From the NCBI GenBank assembly GCA_963776275.1, contig CAVZMI010000034.1, forward strand, positions 32,001 through 96,000: a stretch of 64,000 nucleotides of DNA. Direction: 5' to 3'. A program made the translations under genes and the position numbers. Each line of letters starts with the position of its first letter. Within the stretch, counting starts at the first letter, position 1. Shown piece after piece: positions 13-31,380 of the stretch. The DNA comes from Ignavibacteriota bacterium. GTDB lineage: Bacteria > Bacteroidota > Ignavibacteria > UBA10030 > CAVZMI01. The notes beneath the pieces were generated by a model. It made no database searches. It was not told where the DNA came from and saw only the letters and a list, made by a program, of their open reading frames with translations.

Positions 13-534
13 ATGTTTTTTGGATTATTAAAAGTCGATAAATCAGAGCCAAAAATAAAAAAATTGGATGCACCTATAAAAATGATCGGTGTTTCGCTGA
101 AGACAAGTATGAAAACAATATATAAAGATGCAGTTGTTTTAGGAAAAGAATATCAAAAGGTTAAAAAGCTAAACATAATTCAAAATAAAAAAATACCCTG
201 GTCTTTCGTTGCGGTAAGTAAAAATTTCAGTGATAACAATAGTAGGTGGGAATATTTGATGGGTGATGTTGTAACAACATTTGATAATACACCGAAAGGA
301 TTAATAACATTTGAAATTCCAGCAAATACTTATGCAGTATTCACAATTCGGCCAAAATTAAATTTTCTTTGGGATCCTATTATTGGGATGACAAAGAAGT
401 ATATATTTACAGAGTGGCTGCCTAATTCAAAATATGAATCTAATAATAGTATTATAGGTGATTTTGAATATCACGATGAACGAAGTGTATCTAAAAATCC
501 ATCCATAGATTTGTATGTAGCTGTTAAAGATTAG
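13..534 (+). CDS. GyrI-like small-molecule binding domain protein (cassette 1)
   Basis: Motifs IKMIGVS...YLMGDVV...PKGLITFEIPANTYAVFT...YIFTEWLPNSKYE...DFEYHD...IDLYVAVK are typical of GyrI-like/AraC effector-binding domains. Very AT-rich. Confidence 0.85.
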   Translation: MFFGLLKVDKSEPKIKKLDAPIKMIGVSLKTSMKTIYKDAVVLGKEYQKVKKLNIIQNKKIPWSFVAVSKNFSDNNSRWEYLMGDVVTTFDNTPKGLITFEIPANTYAVFTIRPKLNFLWDPIIGMTKKYIFTEWLPNSKYESNNSIIGDFEYHDERSVSKNPSIDLYVAVKD

Positions 535-558: not shown

Positions 559-664
559 GCATATCATAGCAGGCACTATAACGTGAAAAACACCCTACCC
601 CGCCACATAAAATTATTTTATATCAGTATCGGGTAAGACGGTGTGGTTTGCGTGAACGTTATGG
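559..664 (+). other. attC-like site 1
   Basis: GCATATC (559-565) to GTTATGG (658-664). Imperfect outer stem GCAGGC/GTTTGC, inner CACC/GGTG and an ATAAAAT/ATTTTAT hairpin. Confidence 0.6.
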
Positions 665-696
665 GCAATTGCTAACACAAAAGAAGGAGAGGTCTT

Positions 697-1731
697 GTGT
701 CTCGTAGGCTCCATATGGAAATCATCTTATTGATCTTATGCGCTGCGACAAATTTGGTAATGAGCCAGGAGATACTAACGATAAGCACGAAGATCCCACA
801 CGCTCGGAAGTACCACAGCTTCCTGTACCACGATACCAGCGGTTGTGTTCTTTTGTTCTCAGGCGTTTCGAGAAGCGGATGGACGACCGATCTCATGGAC
901 ATCTGGTCGTATGATGTAAAGTCTGGCCAATGGAACAACGTCGGCATCTGTGAACCTCTCCAGCCCGACAGCTCTAATGTATTCACTTCCGCTGTCTACG
1001 ATAGCAAATCAAATCGCGTTATAATATTCGATCGTCAGGGACAAACCTGGGCCTATCATTTTGAGAAGAATACGTGGCAGAATATGAAGCCGAATGTATC
1101 GCCACTCCCCCGATGCGGGCAGGGGATGGCGTATGATACTGAATCCGACCGCGTGATTATGTTCGGCGGATTTGGATGCAAGGGAGTCAACGACAGCGTT
1201 TATGCGGACACATGGGCCTATAACTATGATTCCAACACCTGGACCTTGATGCATCCCATGCTTTCCCCACCCGCTCGTATGTACTCTGCGATGGCAGACG
1301 ACAGTAAACTGGATCGCGTTGTTATGTGGGGAGGAAGGCTGTGGAAGCCGTTGCCGGACAACGCTGTGTGGGCATACGATTTTAATTCTGATACCTGGAC
1401 TCGCTACGAGAATGACGGCGGCCCGGCACAGGCGCTCACCTATGCCAACATGGTATACCGGACAGCGACTCACGATTTCTTTCTGTATGGAGGTGCAGTG
1501 CTAGTAGCAGCGTTCAAAGGCAAGCCCACGAATGAAACGTGGACGTATGAACTTTCTTCCAACACATGGAAGCGGCTCATGCCAAACCATTTGCCACCCC
1601 CACTTGCCAACCACGGTATGGCGTATGTCCCGACTAGCAGTGTCGTCATCCTGTTCGGGGGAGAACTTGTAGCTCTCTATTCTGACAAGCTATTCAGTGA
1701 CGTTCTGGTTATTCGACTCGAAGACAAATGA
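697..1731 (+). CDS. Secreted Kelch-repeat (beta-propeller) protein (cassette 2)
   Basis: Signal-peptide-like N-terminus and repeated P-P-R/H-GMAYD...VIMFGG...DTWAYxxxxNTW Kelch units. RBS AAGGAG upstream of the GTG start. Confidence 0.85.
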   Translation: MSRRLHMEIILLILCAATNLVMSQEILTISTKIPHARKYHSFLYHDTSGCVLLFSGVSRSGWTTDLMDIWSYDVKSGQWNNVGICEPLQPDSSNVFTSAVYDSKSNRVIIFDRQGQTWAYHFEKNTWQNMKPNVSPLPRCGQGMAYDTESDRVIMFGGFGCKGVNDSVYADTWAYNYDSNTWTLMHPMLSPPARMYSAMADDSKLDRVVMWGGRLWKPLPDNAVWAYDFNSDTWTRYENDGGPAQALTYANMVYRTATHDFFLYGGAVLVAAFKGKPTNETWTYELSSNTWKRLMPNHLPPPLANHGMAYVPTSSVVILFGGELVALYSDKLFSDVLVIRLEDK

Positions 1732-1758
1732 TTGGGTCAAGCAATAGTTCGCAACTGC

Positions 1759-1884
1759 TCATATCACGCAAAACAACGACGTTGGAATAGGCAGGGAATA
1801 AAAAACCTCGCTCAATATTTTTGTTCGCTTGAATTAGATTTATACGCTCACAAAAATATTGCGTTGTTTTGCAGGACGTTAATC
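1759..1884 (+). other. attC-like site 2
   Basis: TCATATC (1759-1765). Perfect stems GCAAAACAACG (1768-1778)/CGTTGTTTTGC (1862-1872) and CAATATTTTTGT (1813-1824)/ACAAAAATATTG (1850-1861). Ends GTTAATC (1878-1884). Confidence 0.75.
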
Positions 1885-1926
1885 GCCACACAGCGGACAA
1901 TTTGTGCAATCAACGGAGGTGAATTT

Positions 1927-2771
1927 GTGAACTCCAAATGCATCATTCTGCTTGTTGCATTTATTGCTGTGCGATATTCTGCAGCACAGCAAGAGGCAAA
2001 GCTCTACGGAATCGAACGCGTCTATTTCCGACCTGTTCTAGAATCGGATTCAAACCTGATGCGACAGCCCAACGTGGCCTCATTTCTGCCGATTCAACTC
2101 AAGTCTTCCGACCTCGGCTCAATTTAAACAACTCTTTGGATGAAATAGCTGTTCGGGATTTTCGTCTCCCATTTGATCCTCACGGTAAGGAACTCTGGAT
2201 TCGGGAGATTGTTAACAGTGAACATCATCGAATATTTGAGACATGGTGGGCCATGTATGCAGGTGGAAAACGTAGTTGCTTGTGGCGCTTTAGGGCCGAT
2301 CCGAGAGACAACGACGACAAAGCGCTAACGAACTATGTACTAGATAGTGTGTTACAGTCTGGAGAGCACACCATCGCTGTTCGAGTCCAAGGAACAATGT
2401 TTCGCCCACAAGGGGCTTGGTGGGTAACAGGAAAAGTGTTCAATTTCTCCATAGTCGACTCTGGATTAGTTTTCTCATGTATTGAAAACACGTTCGGCTT
2501 TTTTCATGGCTACAACCGGGGCGAGGATCCGCCGATCAGCGTCATGTCGGAAGAGCTAGTCGACAAGCGTTTTCGGAAGCGTGAGGTGTACAAAACTCCC
2601 GAGCATATTCTCAGGCTATGCGGATTCCGAAATCCAGTAACAGATGACGCATCACAATTCAATTGGATAGAACTCCGACAAGTTGCTCGCTGCATTACCG
2701 AAAGAGCTGGTGCAAAGGAATCTTTTCGTGCAATGTATGCACCCACGTTTGTTGAACGTGGTGGGAAATGA
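1927..2771 (+). CDS. Hypothetical secreted protein, frameshifted near 2115-2127 (cassette 3)
   Basis: GGAGGT RBS then GTG at 1927 with a signal-peptide-like start in the 1732..2127 frame. Continues in the 1938..2771 frame. Confidence 0.6.
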
Positions 2772-2835
2772 GGTGTGCTCACCAAGCAACATGGTTTACG
2801 TAGTATTAAGGTCGGAGGGTGATCCGCTTCGCGGC

Positions 2836-2983
2836 ACTTATCAGCACCAACTACGACACTCGCTTCATTTGGTAAGGCAACGTTGGTCCCTAGTTCGGCG
2901 CGACAAATAAAGGTCGTTCACCCCGCCCGTCAATTGACAGAATGTTGGTCGGTCGGGGTGCGTAGTTGGCCCAGATGTTATGC
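2836..2983 (+). other. attC-like site 3
   Basis: ACTTATC (2836-2842). Stems CCAACTACG (2847-2855)/CGTAGTTGG (2961-2969) and CACCCCGCCCG (2919-2929)/CGGTCGGGGTG (2950-2960). Ends GTTATGC (2977-2983). Confidence 0.75.
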
Positions 2984-3035
2984 GCCATTTGCGTTGCGTT
3001 AACTCATGAGAAACAGGAACGAAAGGGAAAACAAT

Positions 3036-3398
3036 ATGAAAGTCACAGGACTCTCTCTCTGCCTCCTTATAGGAACGGTCTTCTTGTACAACGGATGCAA
3101 GGATGACACAACGGCCCTAGAAGATAATATCTGTTCCTTTGTTAATCCGTATTTGGTTGATAGGCCCGAGAATGGTGCCAATATTCCAGGTTGCGGAACT
3201 ACAAATGTAACTGTTTCAAATGTTCAGCGTATCCAACCATATGCAGTTGTATATTCATTTGATTTCACAATCTCCTGTTCGTCCAGTGGAAAGACTTACT
3301 CGGGGAGAGTCTACGAAGTTGAGTATTCGGACAATTGGATTCCAATAGCTTACAAGCTGGATATTAACGGGAAAAATTGTGGTAGGATTCAAATGTAG
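3036..3398 (+). CDS. Hypothetical lipoprotein (cassette 4; no downstream attC-like site seen)
   Basis: MKVTGLSLCLLIGTVFLYNGC lipoprotein-type signal; the mature part contains several Cys residues. Confidence 0.7.
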   Translation: MKVTGLSLCLLIGTVFLYNGCKDDTTALEDNICSFVNPYLVDRPENGANIPGCGTTNVTVSNVQRIQPYAVVYSFDFTISCSSSGKTYSGRVYEVEYSDNWIPIAYKLDINGKNCGRIQM

Positions 3399-3448
3399 GA
3401 ATTAGCTGGAGAATTGACCAATCATCAATGCCGGAGCGATATTCTTAT

Positions 3449-4144
3449 CTATTCCTTCTCTTTTTTCTTCCCTTCGATGACAATGACAAATTCCCCCTTG
3501 ATGTTCCGGGATGAAAAATGTTCAAGAACCGAAGAGACGGAACCGCGCAGCACCTCCTCGAATTTTTTCGTCAGCTCGCGCGCCACGGCAATCCGGCGAT
3601 CGCCAAAATACTGCTGAATATCTGCAAGTGTGCGGAGTACTTTATGGGGGGATTCGTAGAGGATGACTGTCCGTTCCTCTTTTGCAAGCCGTTTCAGCAT
3701 CGTCTGGCGCCCTTTCTTCGCCGGCAGAAAGCCTTCGAAGACGAACGCATCCGCCGATAAACCGCTGACGACGAGAGCGGCCACAAAGGCGGTGGGGCCC
3801 GGAATGGGAACGACCGGCACATCGGCGTCGATCGCGGCACGCACAATGCTGTAAGCAGGATCCGAGATGCCCGGCGTCCCGGCATCCGACACCAGCGCGA
3901 TCGATTGACCCTGCTCGAGCTTATCTATAAGATCGGGTACCCGGCGCTGCTCGTTATAACTGTAGAAGCTTATGAGCGGTTTCTTAATTTCGAAATGATC
4001 TAATAGAATCTTCGTCGTTCGCGTGTCTTCTGCAGCTATCAGATCGACAGATTTTAATATCTCCAGCGCCCGTACGGTGATATCGCCGAGATTGCCGATA
4101 GGAGTCGCGACAATAAATAAGACTCCTCGCGAAGTATTCACCAT
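3449..4144 (-). CDS. rsmI: 16S rRNA (cytidine1402-2'-O)-methyltransferase
   Basis: LFIVATPIGNLGDIT, AAEDTRTT, VSDAGTPGISDP, YESPHK and ARELTKKFEE motifs. Start moved to the ATG at 4144. Confidence 0.95.
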   Translation of the reverse strand: MVNTSRGVLFIVATPIGNLGDITVRALEILKSVDLIAAEDTRTTKILLDHFEIKKPLISFYSYNEQRRVPDLIDKLEQGQSIALVSDAGTPGISDPAYSIVRAAIDADVPVVPIPGPTAFVAALVVSGLSADAFVFEGFLPAKKGRQTMLKRLAKEERTVILYESPHKVLRTLADIQQYFGDRRIAVARELTKKFEEVLRGSVSSVLEHFSSRNIKGEFVIVIEGKKKEKE

Positions 4145-4246
4145 ATTTGATGAAGAATATTCAATCATAATGTCATAATATAGGAATATGAGATGAAAAA
4201 AAGAAATGAATATACGATTCAAAAAGATGTATACGTGTATTTCACC

Positions 4247-4282
4247 AAAAAAAACGGCCAGATGCCCCAAGGCTCCTGGCCG
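4247..4282 (-). terminator. Intrinsic terminator after lat
   Basis: Minus strand CGGCCAG...CTGGCCG stem followed by a T8 tract. Confidence 0.7.
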
Positions 4283-4328
4283 CATTATGGCGTTCTCCCC
4301 GTATTTTAAGATCCGAAATCCAGAGATC

Positions 4329-29187: not shown

Positions 29188-31380
29188 TCACAAAAGTGCT
29201 TCAACCGTCAGTGTAAATCGTCGTACTGGCGCGATATTACCAATCAATTCCACATAATAATATTGAAAGATATTATATGCATTAAACGTAATACGTGCAG
29301 GGATGCCATAATGCGATCCGTCGAACATGAGACGGGCATCAGTGACATAGATAGGGACCCGCAGGTCTCCGTCTTTGACTATGTTGAGTGTGACAAACTC
29401 CCTATCGATCCTGTCGATTTTGCTGATAAACCGGAAATCGATTCCGGCGCTGAACGATCCGATGGTTGCGTCGAATCCGGCCATGAGTACATGGCGGGGT
29501 CTGTATTTTAAAAGGTCATTAAGCGTAAGGTCGCGCGGATAGACATAGGTGTAGGCAAGCTCGGCCTTGAGGAGATTATGGAATAATGAGGATTGAAGGT
29601 GAACTTCTCCGCCGAGGATACGTGCGCGTGTAACATTATTAAACTGTCCGAATGATTTTCCTCCGATGACAACAAAACGGGGCTCGATCATATCCCAGAA
29701 CTCATTTTGAAAAAGTGCGCAATCGACAGCGACATCGGATACTATCCGAGCGTTCAACCCGATTTCTATTGACAAGCTTCGTTCAGGCTGAAGCGAAGGA
29801 TTCGGGATGATGGTGAGTCCGCCGGCACTCGTGACCGTGAATGTTTCGCCGACCGTCGGTACACGAAATCCGCTCCCGGCCGATGCCCTGACAATGATCC
29901 CCTCGGACAGCGTCGCGGTCAGACCGAGTTTCGGATTGAAGCGCGAAAAAGCCGAAAGAGAATCGATTTTTTGATAATCATATCGAGCACCCGCGGTAAC
30001 ATGCAGCGAAGTCATGATTGCATATTCATCCTGGATGTAGAATGCCCCACCGCCTCCCGATCGTTTGCCAAAAATGTTCGCATCGACCTTATCGATTCGT
30101 CCTTCTATACCCGCCGTGAGATAATGCTGCGGATGAATCTGAGTTTCAATCTGCACTTCGTTAACAAAAAGGTTTGCCAGCGACTTATTCCCCACTCCAT
30201 TGATGTTGCCGACATTATCCTCCCAGTCAGTCCGGTACCACATCGATTTGAAAGTGAATGAAAGATCCTCTGTGAGAAATGTTTTAAAATCCGAGCTGAC
30301 ATTCACCCGTGTCGTTTTTACCCATTCACCAAGCTGATCTTCCTGCGGCTGAAGCGCGTGATAAATATCGCGCCAGAAGAGAAAGCTTCCTGTCCGATGG
30401 GAATAGAAGTTAGTACTCAAAGTCCAGCGGGTGAACGGACTGAATTCATACCCGGCTTTCGCATAGAAATTCAAACGTCGGGCATAATCATTTTCACGGT
30501 ATCCATCATCGACCGTACGATTTGCCGAGAGCGCCAATGTAAGCTTATCGAAACGCTGTGTATGAGTAAGATATAGACCGGCCTGACCCCGCGTTACAGA
30601 GGACCACTTCCATTCATCGTAGAGCGGACGGTCATACACACTCAAAAAAGTCTTTATCACAGTCACAGGTTGTGATTCAACTTCTTTCGTAATAATATTG
30701 ATAACCCCCCCGAGCGCATTCGATCCGTACAGTGCCGATCCGGCTCCTTTCACAACTTCGACCCGATCGATGCTCATTACCGGAATGGATTCAAAAATAA
30801 TCTCGCCCGTATCGCCGGTGAGATAAGGGATCCCGTCGAGCAGCACCAGCACGCGGCTTCCGATTCCGCGGGCATATCCGCTCGATCCGCGGATGTTGAT
30901 TTGCCATTGCGTCATGTTGACGCCGGGGATATATCGCAGCGCTTCGTCCATGGTGATAATATTCCGTGTGCGAATCATCTCGGCTCCCATTACGGCAACA
31001 GTCGTCGGTACATCCTGAATATTCTGTTCATGCTTTGCTGCAGTTATAACGACGGGTTGAGTTTGAACAGGCTGGGGTGTCAGCAGAATCGTGATCGTGC
31101 TAATTGAGTCTTTCGCAACACGGACGTTCACGACTTTTTTCGTGGCGAAACCAACCATGGAGACTTCAAGAGTAAAAAGCCCCGGAGGCACTCTTTGGAG
31201 TGCAAATTCGCCCTGTGTATTTGTAGTACTCCCCAGCAGAGTACCATGAACGGAGACTGAAACACCGAGAAGCGGCGATCCGTCCTCATCGGATCTAACA
31301 ACACCCCGAAGCGTACCGTTCTGTGCTAATGATATTTGATGGAATACTATCAGTGCAAAAATGAAAGAGTACCATCTCAT
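29188..31380 (-). CDS. TonB-dependent receptor
   Basis: N-terminal carboxypeptidase-like extension, plug motifs (INIRG, VLVLLDG, IDRVEVVKGAGSALYGSNALGGVINIIT) and a beta-barrel. Confidence 0.93.
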   Translation of the reverse strand: MRWYSFIFALIVFHQISLAQNGTLRGVVRSDEDGSPLLGVSVSVHGTLLGSTTNTQGEFALQRVPPGLFTLEVSMVGFATKKVVNVRVAKDSISTITILLTPQPVQTQPVVITAAKHEQNIQDVPTTVAVMGAEMIRTRNIITMDEALRYIPGVNMTQWQINIRGSSGYARGIGSRVLVLLDGIPYLTGDTGEIIFESIPVMSIDRVEVVKGAGSALYGSNALGGVINIITKEVESQPVTVIKTFLSVYDRPLYDEWKWSSVTRGQAGLYLTHTQRFDKLTLALSANRTVDDGYRENDYARRLNFYAKAGYEFSPFTRWTLSTNFYSHRTGSFLFWRDIYHALQPQEDQLGEWVKTTRVNVSSDFKTFLTEDLSFTFKSMWYRTDWEDNVGNINGVGNKSLANLFVNEVQIETQIHPQHYLTAGIEGRIDKVDANIFGKRSGGGGAFYIQDEYAIMTSLHVTAGARYDYQKIDSLSAFSRFNPKLGLTATLSEGIIVRASAGSGFRVPTVGETFTVTSAGGLTIIPNPSLQPERSLSIEIGLNARIVSDVAVDCALFQNEFWDMIEPRFVVIGGKSFGQFNNVTRARILGGEVHLQSSLFHNLLKAELAYTYVYPRDLTLNDLLKYRPRHVLMAGFDATIGSFSAGIDFRFISKIDRIDREFVTLNIVKDGDLRVPIYVTDARLMFDGSHYGIPARITFNAYNIFQYYYVELIGNIAPVRRFTLTVEALL

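Follow-up and report, generated by a model that had tools for sequence, protein, structure and literature searches.

What kind of site separates the first genes of the DNA analysed here, and which enzyme it belongs with, is the question that this locus raises. The DNA is a stretch of 64,000 nt from a metagenome-assembled genome of an Ignavibacteriota bacterium (G000:C34:32001-96000; the whole stretch is called the window below), and the assembly consists of 38 contigs, is 96% complete and has 5.3% contamination. The first 3.4 kb of the window hold four same-strand open reading frames (ORFs; 13-534, 697-1731, 1938-2771 and 3006-3398), separated by three structured intergenic sites. The original prediction, made from the letters of the window, took these sites for a distinct class of single-stranded recombination site, marked by a TATC left core opposite GTT and possibly served by a divergent integrase. 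We consider it probable that the three sites are attC-type sites in an orphan and decaying cassette array, that they belong to a family served by an IntI-like recombinase without the I2 domain, and that the ATC letters weaken the sites that carry them.

The Three Sites

Scores below refer to R1, a covariance model built from an alignment of 51 sites from the source genome and from loci of nine relatives. R1 was trained on this family's own sites, and its scores say nothing on the standard attC model. The sites are laid out as follows.

559-664, forward strand: site 1, degenerate; right core GTTATGG at 658-664; R1 19.2 bits, E 1.1e-4 in 4 kb with filters off
1759-1884, forward strand: site 2; left core TCATATC at 1759-1765, A at 1766, spacer GGAC at 1874-1877, right core GTTAATC at 1878-1884
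Stems of site 2: stem 1, 1767-1778 with 1862-1873; left-arm insertion, 1779-1812 (34 nt); stem 2, 1813-1824 with 1850-1861
2836-2983, forward strand: site 3; left core ACTTATC at 2836-2842, A at 2843, spacer AGAT at 2973-2976, right core GTTATGC at 2977-2983
Stems of site 3: stem 1, 2844-2855 with 2961-2972; left-arm insertion, 2856-2918 (63 nt); stem 2, 2919-2929 with 2950-2960

The TATC letters are present in all three sites where the original prediction had placed them. For sites 2 and 3 the TATC register is supported by the R1 alignment (90.2 bits, E 9.9e-25 and 40.9 bits, E 8.5e-11, respectively), and also by the complementarity between each site's left 17 nt and the beginning of the cassette to which it belongs. 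For site 1 the letters stand but the register is ambiguous as judged from the sequence: the left core may be GCATATC at 559-565, as first proposed, or lie at 561-567, as ungapped likeness to a sister site and the geometry would have it, or be the AAC-containing CTATAAC at 576-582, which R1 uses. Site 1 falls below genome-wide reporting in the R1 search and is seen only with filters off.

The predicted 3-nt shortfall of the left spacer is borne out for sites 2 and 3, where it amounts to 1 vs. 4 nt in the family register; the spacers of 2/5 and 4/7 nt counted originally are this 1/4 plus mismatched end positions of the 12-bp stem. The one-sided loop of the left arm is likewise there, at 1779-1812 and 2856-2918, as is the ACG/CGT at the inner end of the first stem (alignment columns 28-30), and stem 2 directly abuts the right arm in sites 2 and 3. 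Stem 1 pairs at 11 of 12 positions in site 2, at 10 of 12 in site 3, and at 8-9 of 12 in site 1 when G.T is counted. When both strands are folded, sites 2 and 3 lie beyond chance, with z-scores of -2.6/-2.8 on the two strands of site 2 and of -3.45 on the bottom strand of site 3 (its top strand reaches only -0.8), while site 1 does no better than shuffled sequences (-1.3/-1.0, not significant). In sites 2 and 3 the bottom strand has the lower fold energy.

The right cores GTTATGG, GTTAATC and GTTATGC lie just before the next ORF and agree with the canonical GTTRRRY; the canonical left core RYYYAAC, complementary to GTT, is absent from sites 2 and 3, which read ATC. The sites depart from textbook attC geometry, as had been claimed, in that they have no single extrahelical bases in the 12-bp stem, a 1 x 4 central loop and a long insertion on one arm. 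We also considered site 1 as a chimera of two types, with a left part resembling the C23:228226 type and a right part resembling the C23:221938 type. Against a chimera, the first of the two alignments covers the whole length of the site, and its stem 1 still pairs.

A Site Family With One Geometry

A scan of the source genome for the same layout revealed arrays on three further contigs (C23, C22 and C32). With R1 we find 39 matches in the source genome at E <=0.01, two of them partial, and 106 matches in loci of relatives that carry the short recombinase described below. Of 151 genomes sampled across the order (Ignavibacteriales-like), which appears to include cultured species, 91 contain matches.

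All tabulated sites share one layout, consisting of a 7-nt left core, one A, a 12-nt arm, an inner part, a second 12-nt arm, 4 nt and the right core, and the spacers measure 1 and 4 nt throughout, in the source genome as well as in the relatives. The 4-nt spacer mostly ends in AC (NNAC), and the consensus of the right core is GTTAKGY. In the 51-site alignment 96.9% of the cells of the 12-bp stem 1 pair and no column is unpaired; 10 of its 12 pairs change on both sides, a covariation score that was reached by none of 500 shuffles. When exact 10-bp stems flanked by AAC and GTT were counted over the whole genome on a grid of spacer lengths, the cells (1,4), (2,5) and (3,6) had 15, 17 and 19 matches, compared with 0-6 in most other cells; the mirror cells had the same counts, and (0,1)/(1,0) had 11.

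In a set of 113 sites, 82 from relatives and 31 from the source genome, the inner hairpin is flanked by a median of 39 nt on the 5' side and 2 nt on the 3' side, and the one-sided pattern (at least 15 nt on the left and at most 6 nt on the right) is seen in 98. The 5' insertion, of about 30-60 nt, has conserved words at both ends, and since further small helices are predicted within it in 90 of the 113 sites, it probably resembles a branch rather than an open loop. The bottom strand folds with a mean advantage of 2.17 kcal/mol and is the better-folding strand in 96 of the 113 sites. The family sites also match R1 weakly on the opposite strand. As all members share one geometry, the 3-nt spacer asymmetry and the one-sided insertion are not peculiar to the three sites of the window; they are traits of a large site family.

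An Orphan Cassette Array

Across 86 pairs of consecutive sites, complementarity between the 17 leftmost nt of a family site and the beginning of the cassette it belongs to averages 13.1 of 17 positions; against the downstream neighbour the average is 9.1, and against random sites 8.8. The own cassette start was the better match in 66 of these pairs, the worse in 11 and tied in 9 (p 6e-12). Such complementarity is the signature of circular cassettes joined between the G and the TT of the right core. The R box is extended by about 10 bp in the family. Site 3 is complementary to its own cassette start at 11 of 17 positions, and site 2 at 13 of 17 when counted by hand against the flank of site 1; the script, which paired site 2 with the site preceding site 1, gave 12.

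Two sets of cassette copies were found in other contexts. A 198-nt cassette without an ORF is present in three copies in different surroundings (C23:228028-228226, C23:230401-230599 and C22:12939-13155), each bounded by right cores. A diverged copy of the Kelch cassette of the window is found in a contig of a peat metagenome (run X2), corresponding to window positions 665-1353 (43 of 689 letters differ) and 1458-1758 (28 of 301), that is 71 of 990 letters overall, and both its upstream neighbour and its downstream site differ from those in the window. Similarity breaks off at 1758, directly ahead of the left core of site 2 (1759-1765); 53 other letters come next, and then the run X2 contig has a stretch resembling the inner part of site 1. 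We dropped the idea that this arrangement is a circular permutation, since the inner type resembling site 1 is a common site subtype.

The ORFs at the start of the window are the following.

13-534, forward strand: Cass2/GyrI-like integron-associated effector-binding protein (Pfam PF14526, 63.5 bits)
697-1731, forward strand: Kelch beta-propeller (Pfam Kelch families), in a cassette of about 659-1878
1938-2771, forward strand: 277 amino acids (aa), no Pfam family, in a cassette of about 1879-2977
3006-3398, forward strand: 130 aa, no Pfam family, the final unit of the array, with no site after it
3449-4285, reverse strand: the first ORF beyond the array, with a TP_methylase domain (Pfam PF00590); we interpret it as RsmI-like

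Two further sites lie upstream of the window, with right cores GTTAGGC at C34:30289 and GTTATGT at C34:31255, together with a cassette encoding a DUF3795 protein; the second of these sites, C34:31092-31271, scores 32.9 bits with R1. The array on contig C34 thus has five sites (C34:30.2-35.0 kb) and spans about 30.2-35.4 kb, or -1.8 to 3.4 kb in window coordinates. It is headed by a hairpin-plus-GTTAGGC element (C34:30229-30295) without a recombinase gene, and a scan of the contig gave no match to an integrase anywhere on C34. Because its ORFs are cassette-like (Cass2, Kelch and DUF3795 by Pfam), because further sites lie upstream and because C34 has no integrase match, the first 3.4 kb of the window is the far end of an orphan, integrase-less integron-like cassette array. 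With at least two attC-type sites and no integron integrase nearby it falls under the definition of a cluster of attC sites lacking an integron integrase (CALIN). No terminal site follows the ORF at 3006-3398, R1 giving at most 3.4 bits (E >3) in 3000-4000, and the array, which has lost its integrase gene, has a degenerate site 1 and lacks a terminal site, is most likely decaying.

Between the DUF3795 and Cass2 ORFs, at about C34:31945-31975 (window -55 to -25), there is also what looks like a collapsed site, in which a left-core-like GCACAAC lies about 8 nt from a right-core tail and the stems are absent.

A Short Recombinase Heads the Arrays

The source genome has no match to the integron integrase model TIGR02249 over its cut-off. 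Its IntI-like genes are two copies of one recombinase of about 300 aa, on contigs C23 and C22. The C23 copy (C23:235651-236583) heads the largest array. The C22 copy (G000:C22:9512-10735, or L001:1471-2694) is interrupted, shortly ahead of the catalytic-tyrosine motif, by a GIY-YIG ORF (Pfam PF01541) whose last ~40 residues are the recombinase's own tail, and from its sequence this looks like a mobile endonuclease gene inserted in frame.

The best solved relative of the short recombinase is VchIntIA (2a3v; E 1.5e-44), and in that alignment 21 residues of the query (184-204) face 61 residues of the chain (179-239). The protein scores below the cut-offs of all four models used, with 237.7 bits vs. 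265 for TIGR02249, 219.8 vs. 220 for the XerA model NF040815 (a borderline case), 178.8 vs. 335 for XerC and 178.1 vs. 330 for XerD. Aligned with six canonical IntI proteins of the same order, it lacks the block of about 40 residues that constitutes the additional (I2) domain. It shares with IntI an SPLD-type C-terminal tail, which is missing from two outgroup recombinases of the source genome.

Within the order the short recombinase is present in 61 of 151 genomes and canonical IntI (TIGR02249 over cut-off) in 60 of 151. In each of the nine loci scanned, the short recombinase gene is followed downstream by an array of family sites with the same direction as the gene. In 9 of 10 loci its stop codon is accompanied by a short perfect hairpin and, 4-6 nt beyond this, a GTTA core; on its sequence and position we regard this element, which also starts the orphan C34 array, as a candidate attI. 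At least three sites are found in 47 of the 61 genomes with the short recombinase, vs. 18 of the 90 without it. The corresponding numbers for canonical IntI are 22 of 60 with it and 43 of 91 without. R1 found 0 matches in 17 loci around canonical intI, and two simpler scans for canonical attC sites in 10-11 such loci gave no array either; these scans are insensitive, and the stricter one was useless even in known arrays. The family thus co-occurs with an IntI-like recombinase of about 300 aa without I2, and not with canonical IntI. In this sense the expectation of a divergent integrase was right.

Relatives of the short recombinase also occur in other phyla. Downstream of these, 80 loci gave 17 weak matches of the same strand and geometry, in Bacteroidales, Flavobacterium, Treponemataceae, Bacillota and candidate phyla radiation (CPR) loci. 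In a quick tree rooted on the source genome's two other tyrosine recombinases (XerC/D-like), the six canonical IntI proteins form one long-branched clade inside the short family; support along the path is 47-94, and the placement of IntI is unsure.

Several genomes, among them G009 (of the same genus), G022 and G026, have 10-15 family sites although the queries used detected no short recombinase in them and, in some, no IntI of any kind. These may hold orphan arrays or reflect assembly gaps. With a rival reading of the recombinase as an IS91-type integrase in view, we looked at the ORFs of at least 100 aa in the ~1.5 kb upstream of the C23 integrase gene (locus L002), where the neighbour is a GNAT acetyltransferase gene; no transposase family was searched for.

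The ATC Letters

The original prediction took the TATC core as the mark of the class and expected further sites to share it. The left cores were tallied over the source genome without the two partial R1 matches, and over the distinct forward-strand sites of the relatives. The 37 sites of the source genome read AAC in 28 cases, AAT in 5, ATC in 3 and AAA in 1; the 88 sites of the relatives read AAC in 87 cases and ATC in 1, with no AAT or AAA. The same family therefore typically reads TAAC, and ATC is rare and does not define a class. The three ATC sites of the source genome are site 2, site 3 and C23:222821-222945, and the single one among the relatives is low-scoring. ATC falls in different site subtypes whose sisters read AAC, as illustrated by site 3, which is 92.7% identical over 151 nt to C23:229940-230107, a site that reads GCATAAC. 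Right cores are also broken in far or solitary sites of the source genome, which read ATT, GCT, GTG and GTC.

Since the own-cassette starts of cassettes 2 and 3 read TT, the change to ATC is uncompensated. In an assay with IntI1, an attC site with non-complementary GTT-ATC is reported to have recombined at 6e-6 vs. 2.2e-3 for the wild type, or about 370-fold less, and paired changes at that position were tolerated (PMC2811028). Going by the census and this precedent, TATC is a rare A-to-T change of TAAC that most likely weakens the sites, and not a class mark.

In one relative (G028, L042:1665-1891) the first unit after the attI-like hairpin starts GATGCGCAAC, and an exact 10-nt complement ending in ATC lies 33 nt downstream. 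Judged from these letters, the pair could represent an R box in which GAT compensates for ATC, or simply a local hairpin of 10 bp.

A Possible Mechanism and What Weighs Against It

The family membership, the geometry, the cassette structure and the association with the short recombinase are direct observations, and from them we suggest how the sites could work. The bottom strand would fold, and the recombinase would bind the extended R box (the left core plus about 10 flanking nt) and the 12-bp stem. It would then cut the bottom strand within the 5'-AAC-3' of the right core, opposite the junction between G and TT on the top strand, and one strand would be exchanged with another site or with the hairpin-plus-GTTA site beside the recombinase's own gene. 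The strand to be cut could be marked by the spacer asymmetry together with the one-sided branch, in place of the extrahelical bases that I2 reads. ATC leaves a T.T (A.A on the bottom strand) at the base adjoining the cut and most likely weakens the sites, and the cassettes would thereby be locked in a decaying array whose integrase gene has been lost. What we infer in this scheme is how the strand is cleaved, what the asymmetry does and how ATC acts.

Several points weigh against this explanation. Recombination is deduced from sequence, and no junctions or circles were seen, as none of the sequencing runs covers sites 2 and 3 (only three runs contained 5-7% of the words, all as contigs). Given the 38-contig assembly, a canonical intI could be unassembled. 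Fisher tests on the genome counts overstate the association with the short recombinase, related genomes not being independent, and 18 of the 90 genomes in which this enzyme was not detected still hold at least three sites, one genome of the same genus having 15. As to the ATC letters, the base altered in the IntI1 mutant was on the strand that is cleaved, whereas the sites of the window retain AAC on the cleaved bottom strand and carry their change on the strand opposite. The effect may therefore not be equally large, and IntI1 and the short recombinase are moreover different enzymes. Finally, two or three identical A-to-T changes in adjacent sites (3 of the 5 sites of the C34 array vs. about 1 in 33 elsewhere in the source genome) exceed the expectation from simple random decay and leave room for selection.

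Alternative Explanations

The alternative that survives best, unlikely as we hold it to be, is that ATC was selected. In a family of nearly symmetric sites that have no extrahelical bases, the AAC of the left core is where a cut in the top strand could fall, and a change to ATC could block recombination of the wrong strand, or lower excision, while leaving the AAC of the bottom strand intact. The weak matches of family sites to R1 on the opposite strand would fit such a role, as would the recurrence of the same change in unrelated subtypes and the otherwise well-kept state of site 2, with its 90.2 bits. However, the change is rare (4 of 125 tabulated sites), it is found in an orphan array and in a far, degenerate part of C23 beside other broken cores, and a useful lock would be expected to be commoner near active array heads.

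A weaker case can be made for ordinary attC sites that are used in trans by an unassembled canonical IntI with I2, the short recombinase being a neighbour with another job. Canonical IntI is present in 60 of the 151 genomes of the order, the assembly is incomplete, the R boxes and the cassette structure are integron-like, and 9 of 40 genomes with only canonical IntI hold at least three sites. What makes us think this improbable is that the presence of sites does not track canonical IntI (22/60 vs. 43/91), that R1 has no match in the 17 canonical intI loci, and that in all 9 loci scanned it is the short recombinase gene that stands at the array head, its stop codon being marked by a conserved GTTA site; the weak matches of the same geometry beside its relatives in other phyla point the same way.

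The proposal that TATC...GTTA sites form a separate functional class of single-stranded site with a dedicated integrase fares worse, and we give it very little credence. It can draw on the occurrence of the same change in three neighbouring sites and in a fourth ATC site at C23:222821-222945, and on the low-scoring ATC site of a relative, which adjoins an attI-like site whose GAT core could pair with it. Yet it is already largely refuted by the family census, the core being AAC in 28 of the 37 sites of the source genome and in 87 of the 88 from relatives. The ATC sites match the same model R1, and sister sites almost identical to them carry AAC. The change is uncompensated, with TT at the start of the cassettes to which sites 2 and 3 belong, and no separate integrase for the ATC sites was found, the only IntI-like genes of the genome being the two copies of the short recombinase.

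A mistake of assembly or binning as the source of the ATC letters is hardly credible, even though the genome is in 38 contigs with 5.3% contamination and no raw reads of the source cover these letters. Mistakes would not hit one column again and again, and the letter in question recurs at three or four distinct positions, in sites that match well in other respects.

Comparison With Known Systems

With canonical attC sites such as attCaadA7 and the Vibrio cholerae repeats (VCR) the family shares the inverted cores with an AAC end and a GTT start, the cassette boundary in the right core and the pairing of the left core with the own cassette start. The bottom-strand bias of about 2 kcal/mol is shared as well, a value of 2.12 kcal/mol being given for 263 canonical sites (PMC5027507), and so are the extra bases on the L'' arm and the inner part of variable length. 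A canonical stem is described as having two extrahelical bases, typically G and T, about 6 bp apart (PMC7439510), whereas the family has no single extrahelical bases in the first 12 bp. The family also differs in its R box, which is about 10 bp longer, in the conserved 30-60-nt insertion on one arm, and in its central spacer, which is 1 x 4 nt and ends in a conserved AC. The central spacer of canonical attC sites consists of two similar stretches of about 5-6 nt.

The C34 array resembles the CALINs of Cury (2016) and Neron (2022) in having five sites and no integrase match on its contig, and loss of intI is one origin proposed for such clusters (PMC8618304). It differs in that its head keeps the attI-like hairpin-plus-GTTA element, and in that the family's integrase would not count as IntI by the usual definition.

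The short recombinase has the N-terminal SAM-like domain, the catalytic core and the SPLD-type tail of IntI (VchIntIA 2a3v, IntI1; TIGR02249), and like IntI it adjoins an attI-like site and a cassette array. It differs from IntI by the absence of the ~40 residues of I2, by its score below the TIGR02249 cut-off and by the orientation of its gene, which is co-directional with the cassettes. I2 is described as reading the extrahelical bases and is held to be an innovation for single-strand sites (PMC4792948, PMC7790495).

The Xer recombinases (XerC/D and archaeal XerA, with hairpin-mimicking elements such as CTX phage) have no I2 either and are of similar length, and XerA chains are the next PDB matches of the short recombinase. 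The latter lies far below the XerC and XerD cut-offs, however, and it heads cassette arrays and does not serve a single dif site. The two other tyrosine-recombinase genes of the source genome, on contigs C6 and C11, were taken as XerC/D-like. The co-direction of integrase and cassettes is shared with the integrons of Spirochaetota, whose typical IntIs are stated to be generally in reverse orientation (bioRxiv 10.1101/2022.02.06.479319); these IntIs differ from the short recombinase in having been selected for the additional domain (PMC2426708).

Implications

Definitions of integrons in the literature require the additional domain (PMC2426708; bioRxiv 10.1101/2022.02.06.479319), and complete integrons have been reported in Ignavibacteriae in the IntegronFinder papers (PMC9024848). 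In integron biology I2 and the extrahelical bases of attC are held to have co-evolved, and the origin of either alone is presented as an open chicken-and-egg problem (PMC4792948; PMC7790495). A limited literature search, covering titles, abstract openings and passages, turned up no description of an I2-less integrase serving cassette arrays.

We tentatively propose, holding it somewhat less likely than not, that an IntI relative in whose history I2 was never present acts on the sites of the window and on at least 113 related sites, and that the fixed 1 x 4 asymmetry and the branched arm serve to discriminate between the strands. On the sequences at hand the short-recombinase system could represent a stage before I2 was gained, because the clade of I2-bearing IntI falls inside the short family in the quick tree. 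If the proposal is true, folded single strands that have no extrahelical bases would be recombined here by a natural cassette system of the integron type, and a widespread family of such sites together with an I2-less relative of IntI would make the question of the origin of I2 testable. Surveys that take the additional domain as their criterion would either class such arrays as clusters lacking an integrase or overlook them, so that integrons would be undercounted in the Bacteroidota/Ignavibacteriota group. The TATC core, with which the question began, matters less than the site family; the ATC sites are ready-made natural mutants at the base beside the cut.

Minor Observations

ARAGORN calls a tRNA-His at window 1518-1595 on the reverse strand, within the Kelch ORF, and we took this for a false call. 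To the left of the array there are two matches to the bacterial small signal recognition particle (SRP) RNA, at C34:26777-26878 and 29681-29782, 2.9 kb apart. A tRNA at C34:29792-29864 adjoins the array head, and about five tandem repeats of ~35 nt lie between this tRNA and the array, at about C34:29866-30030.

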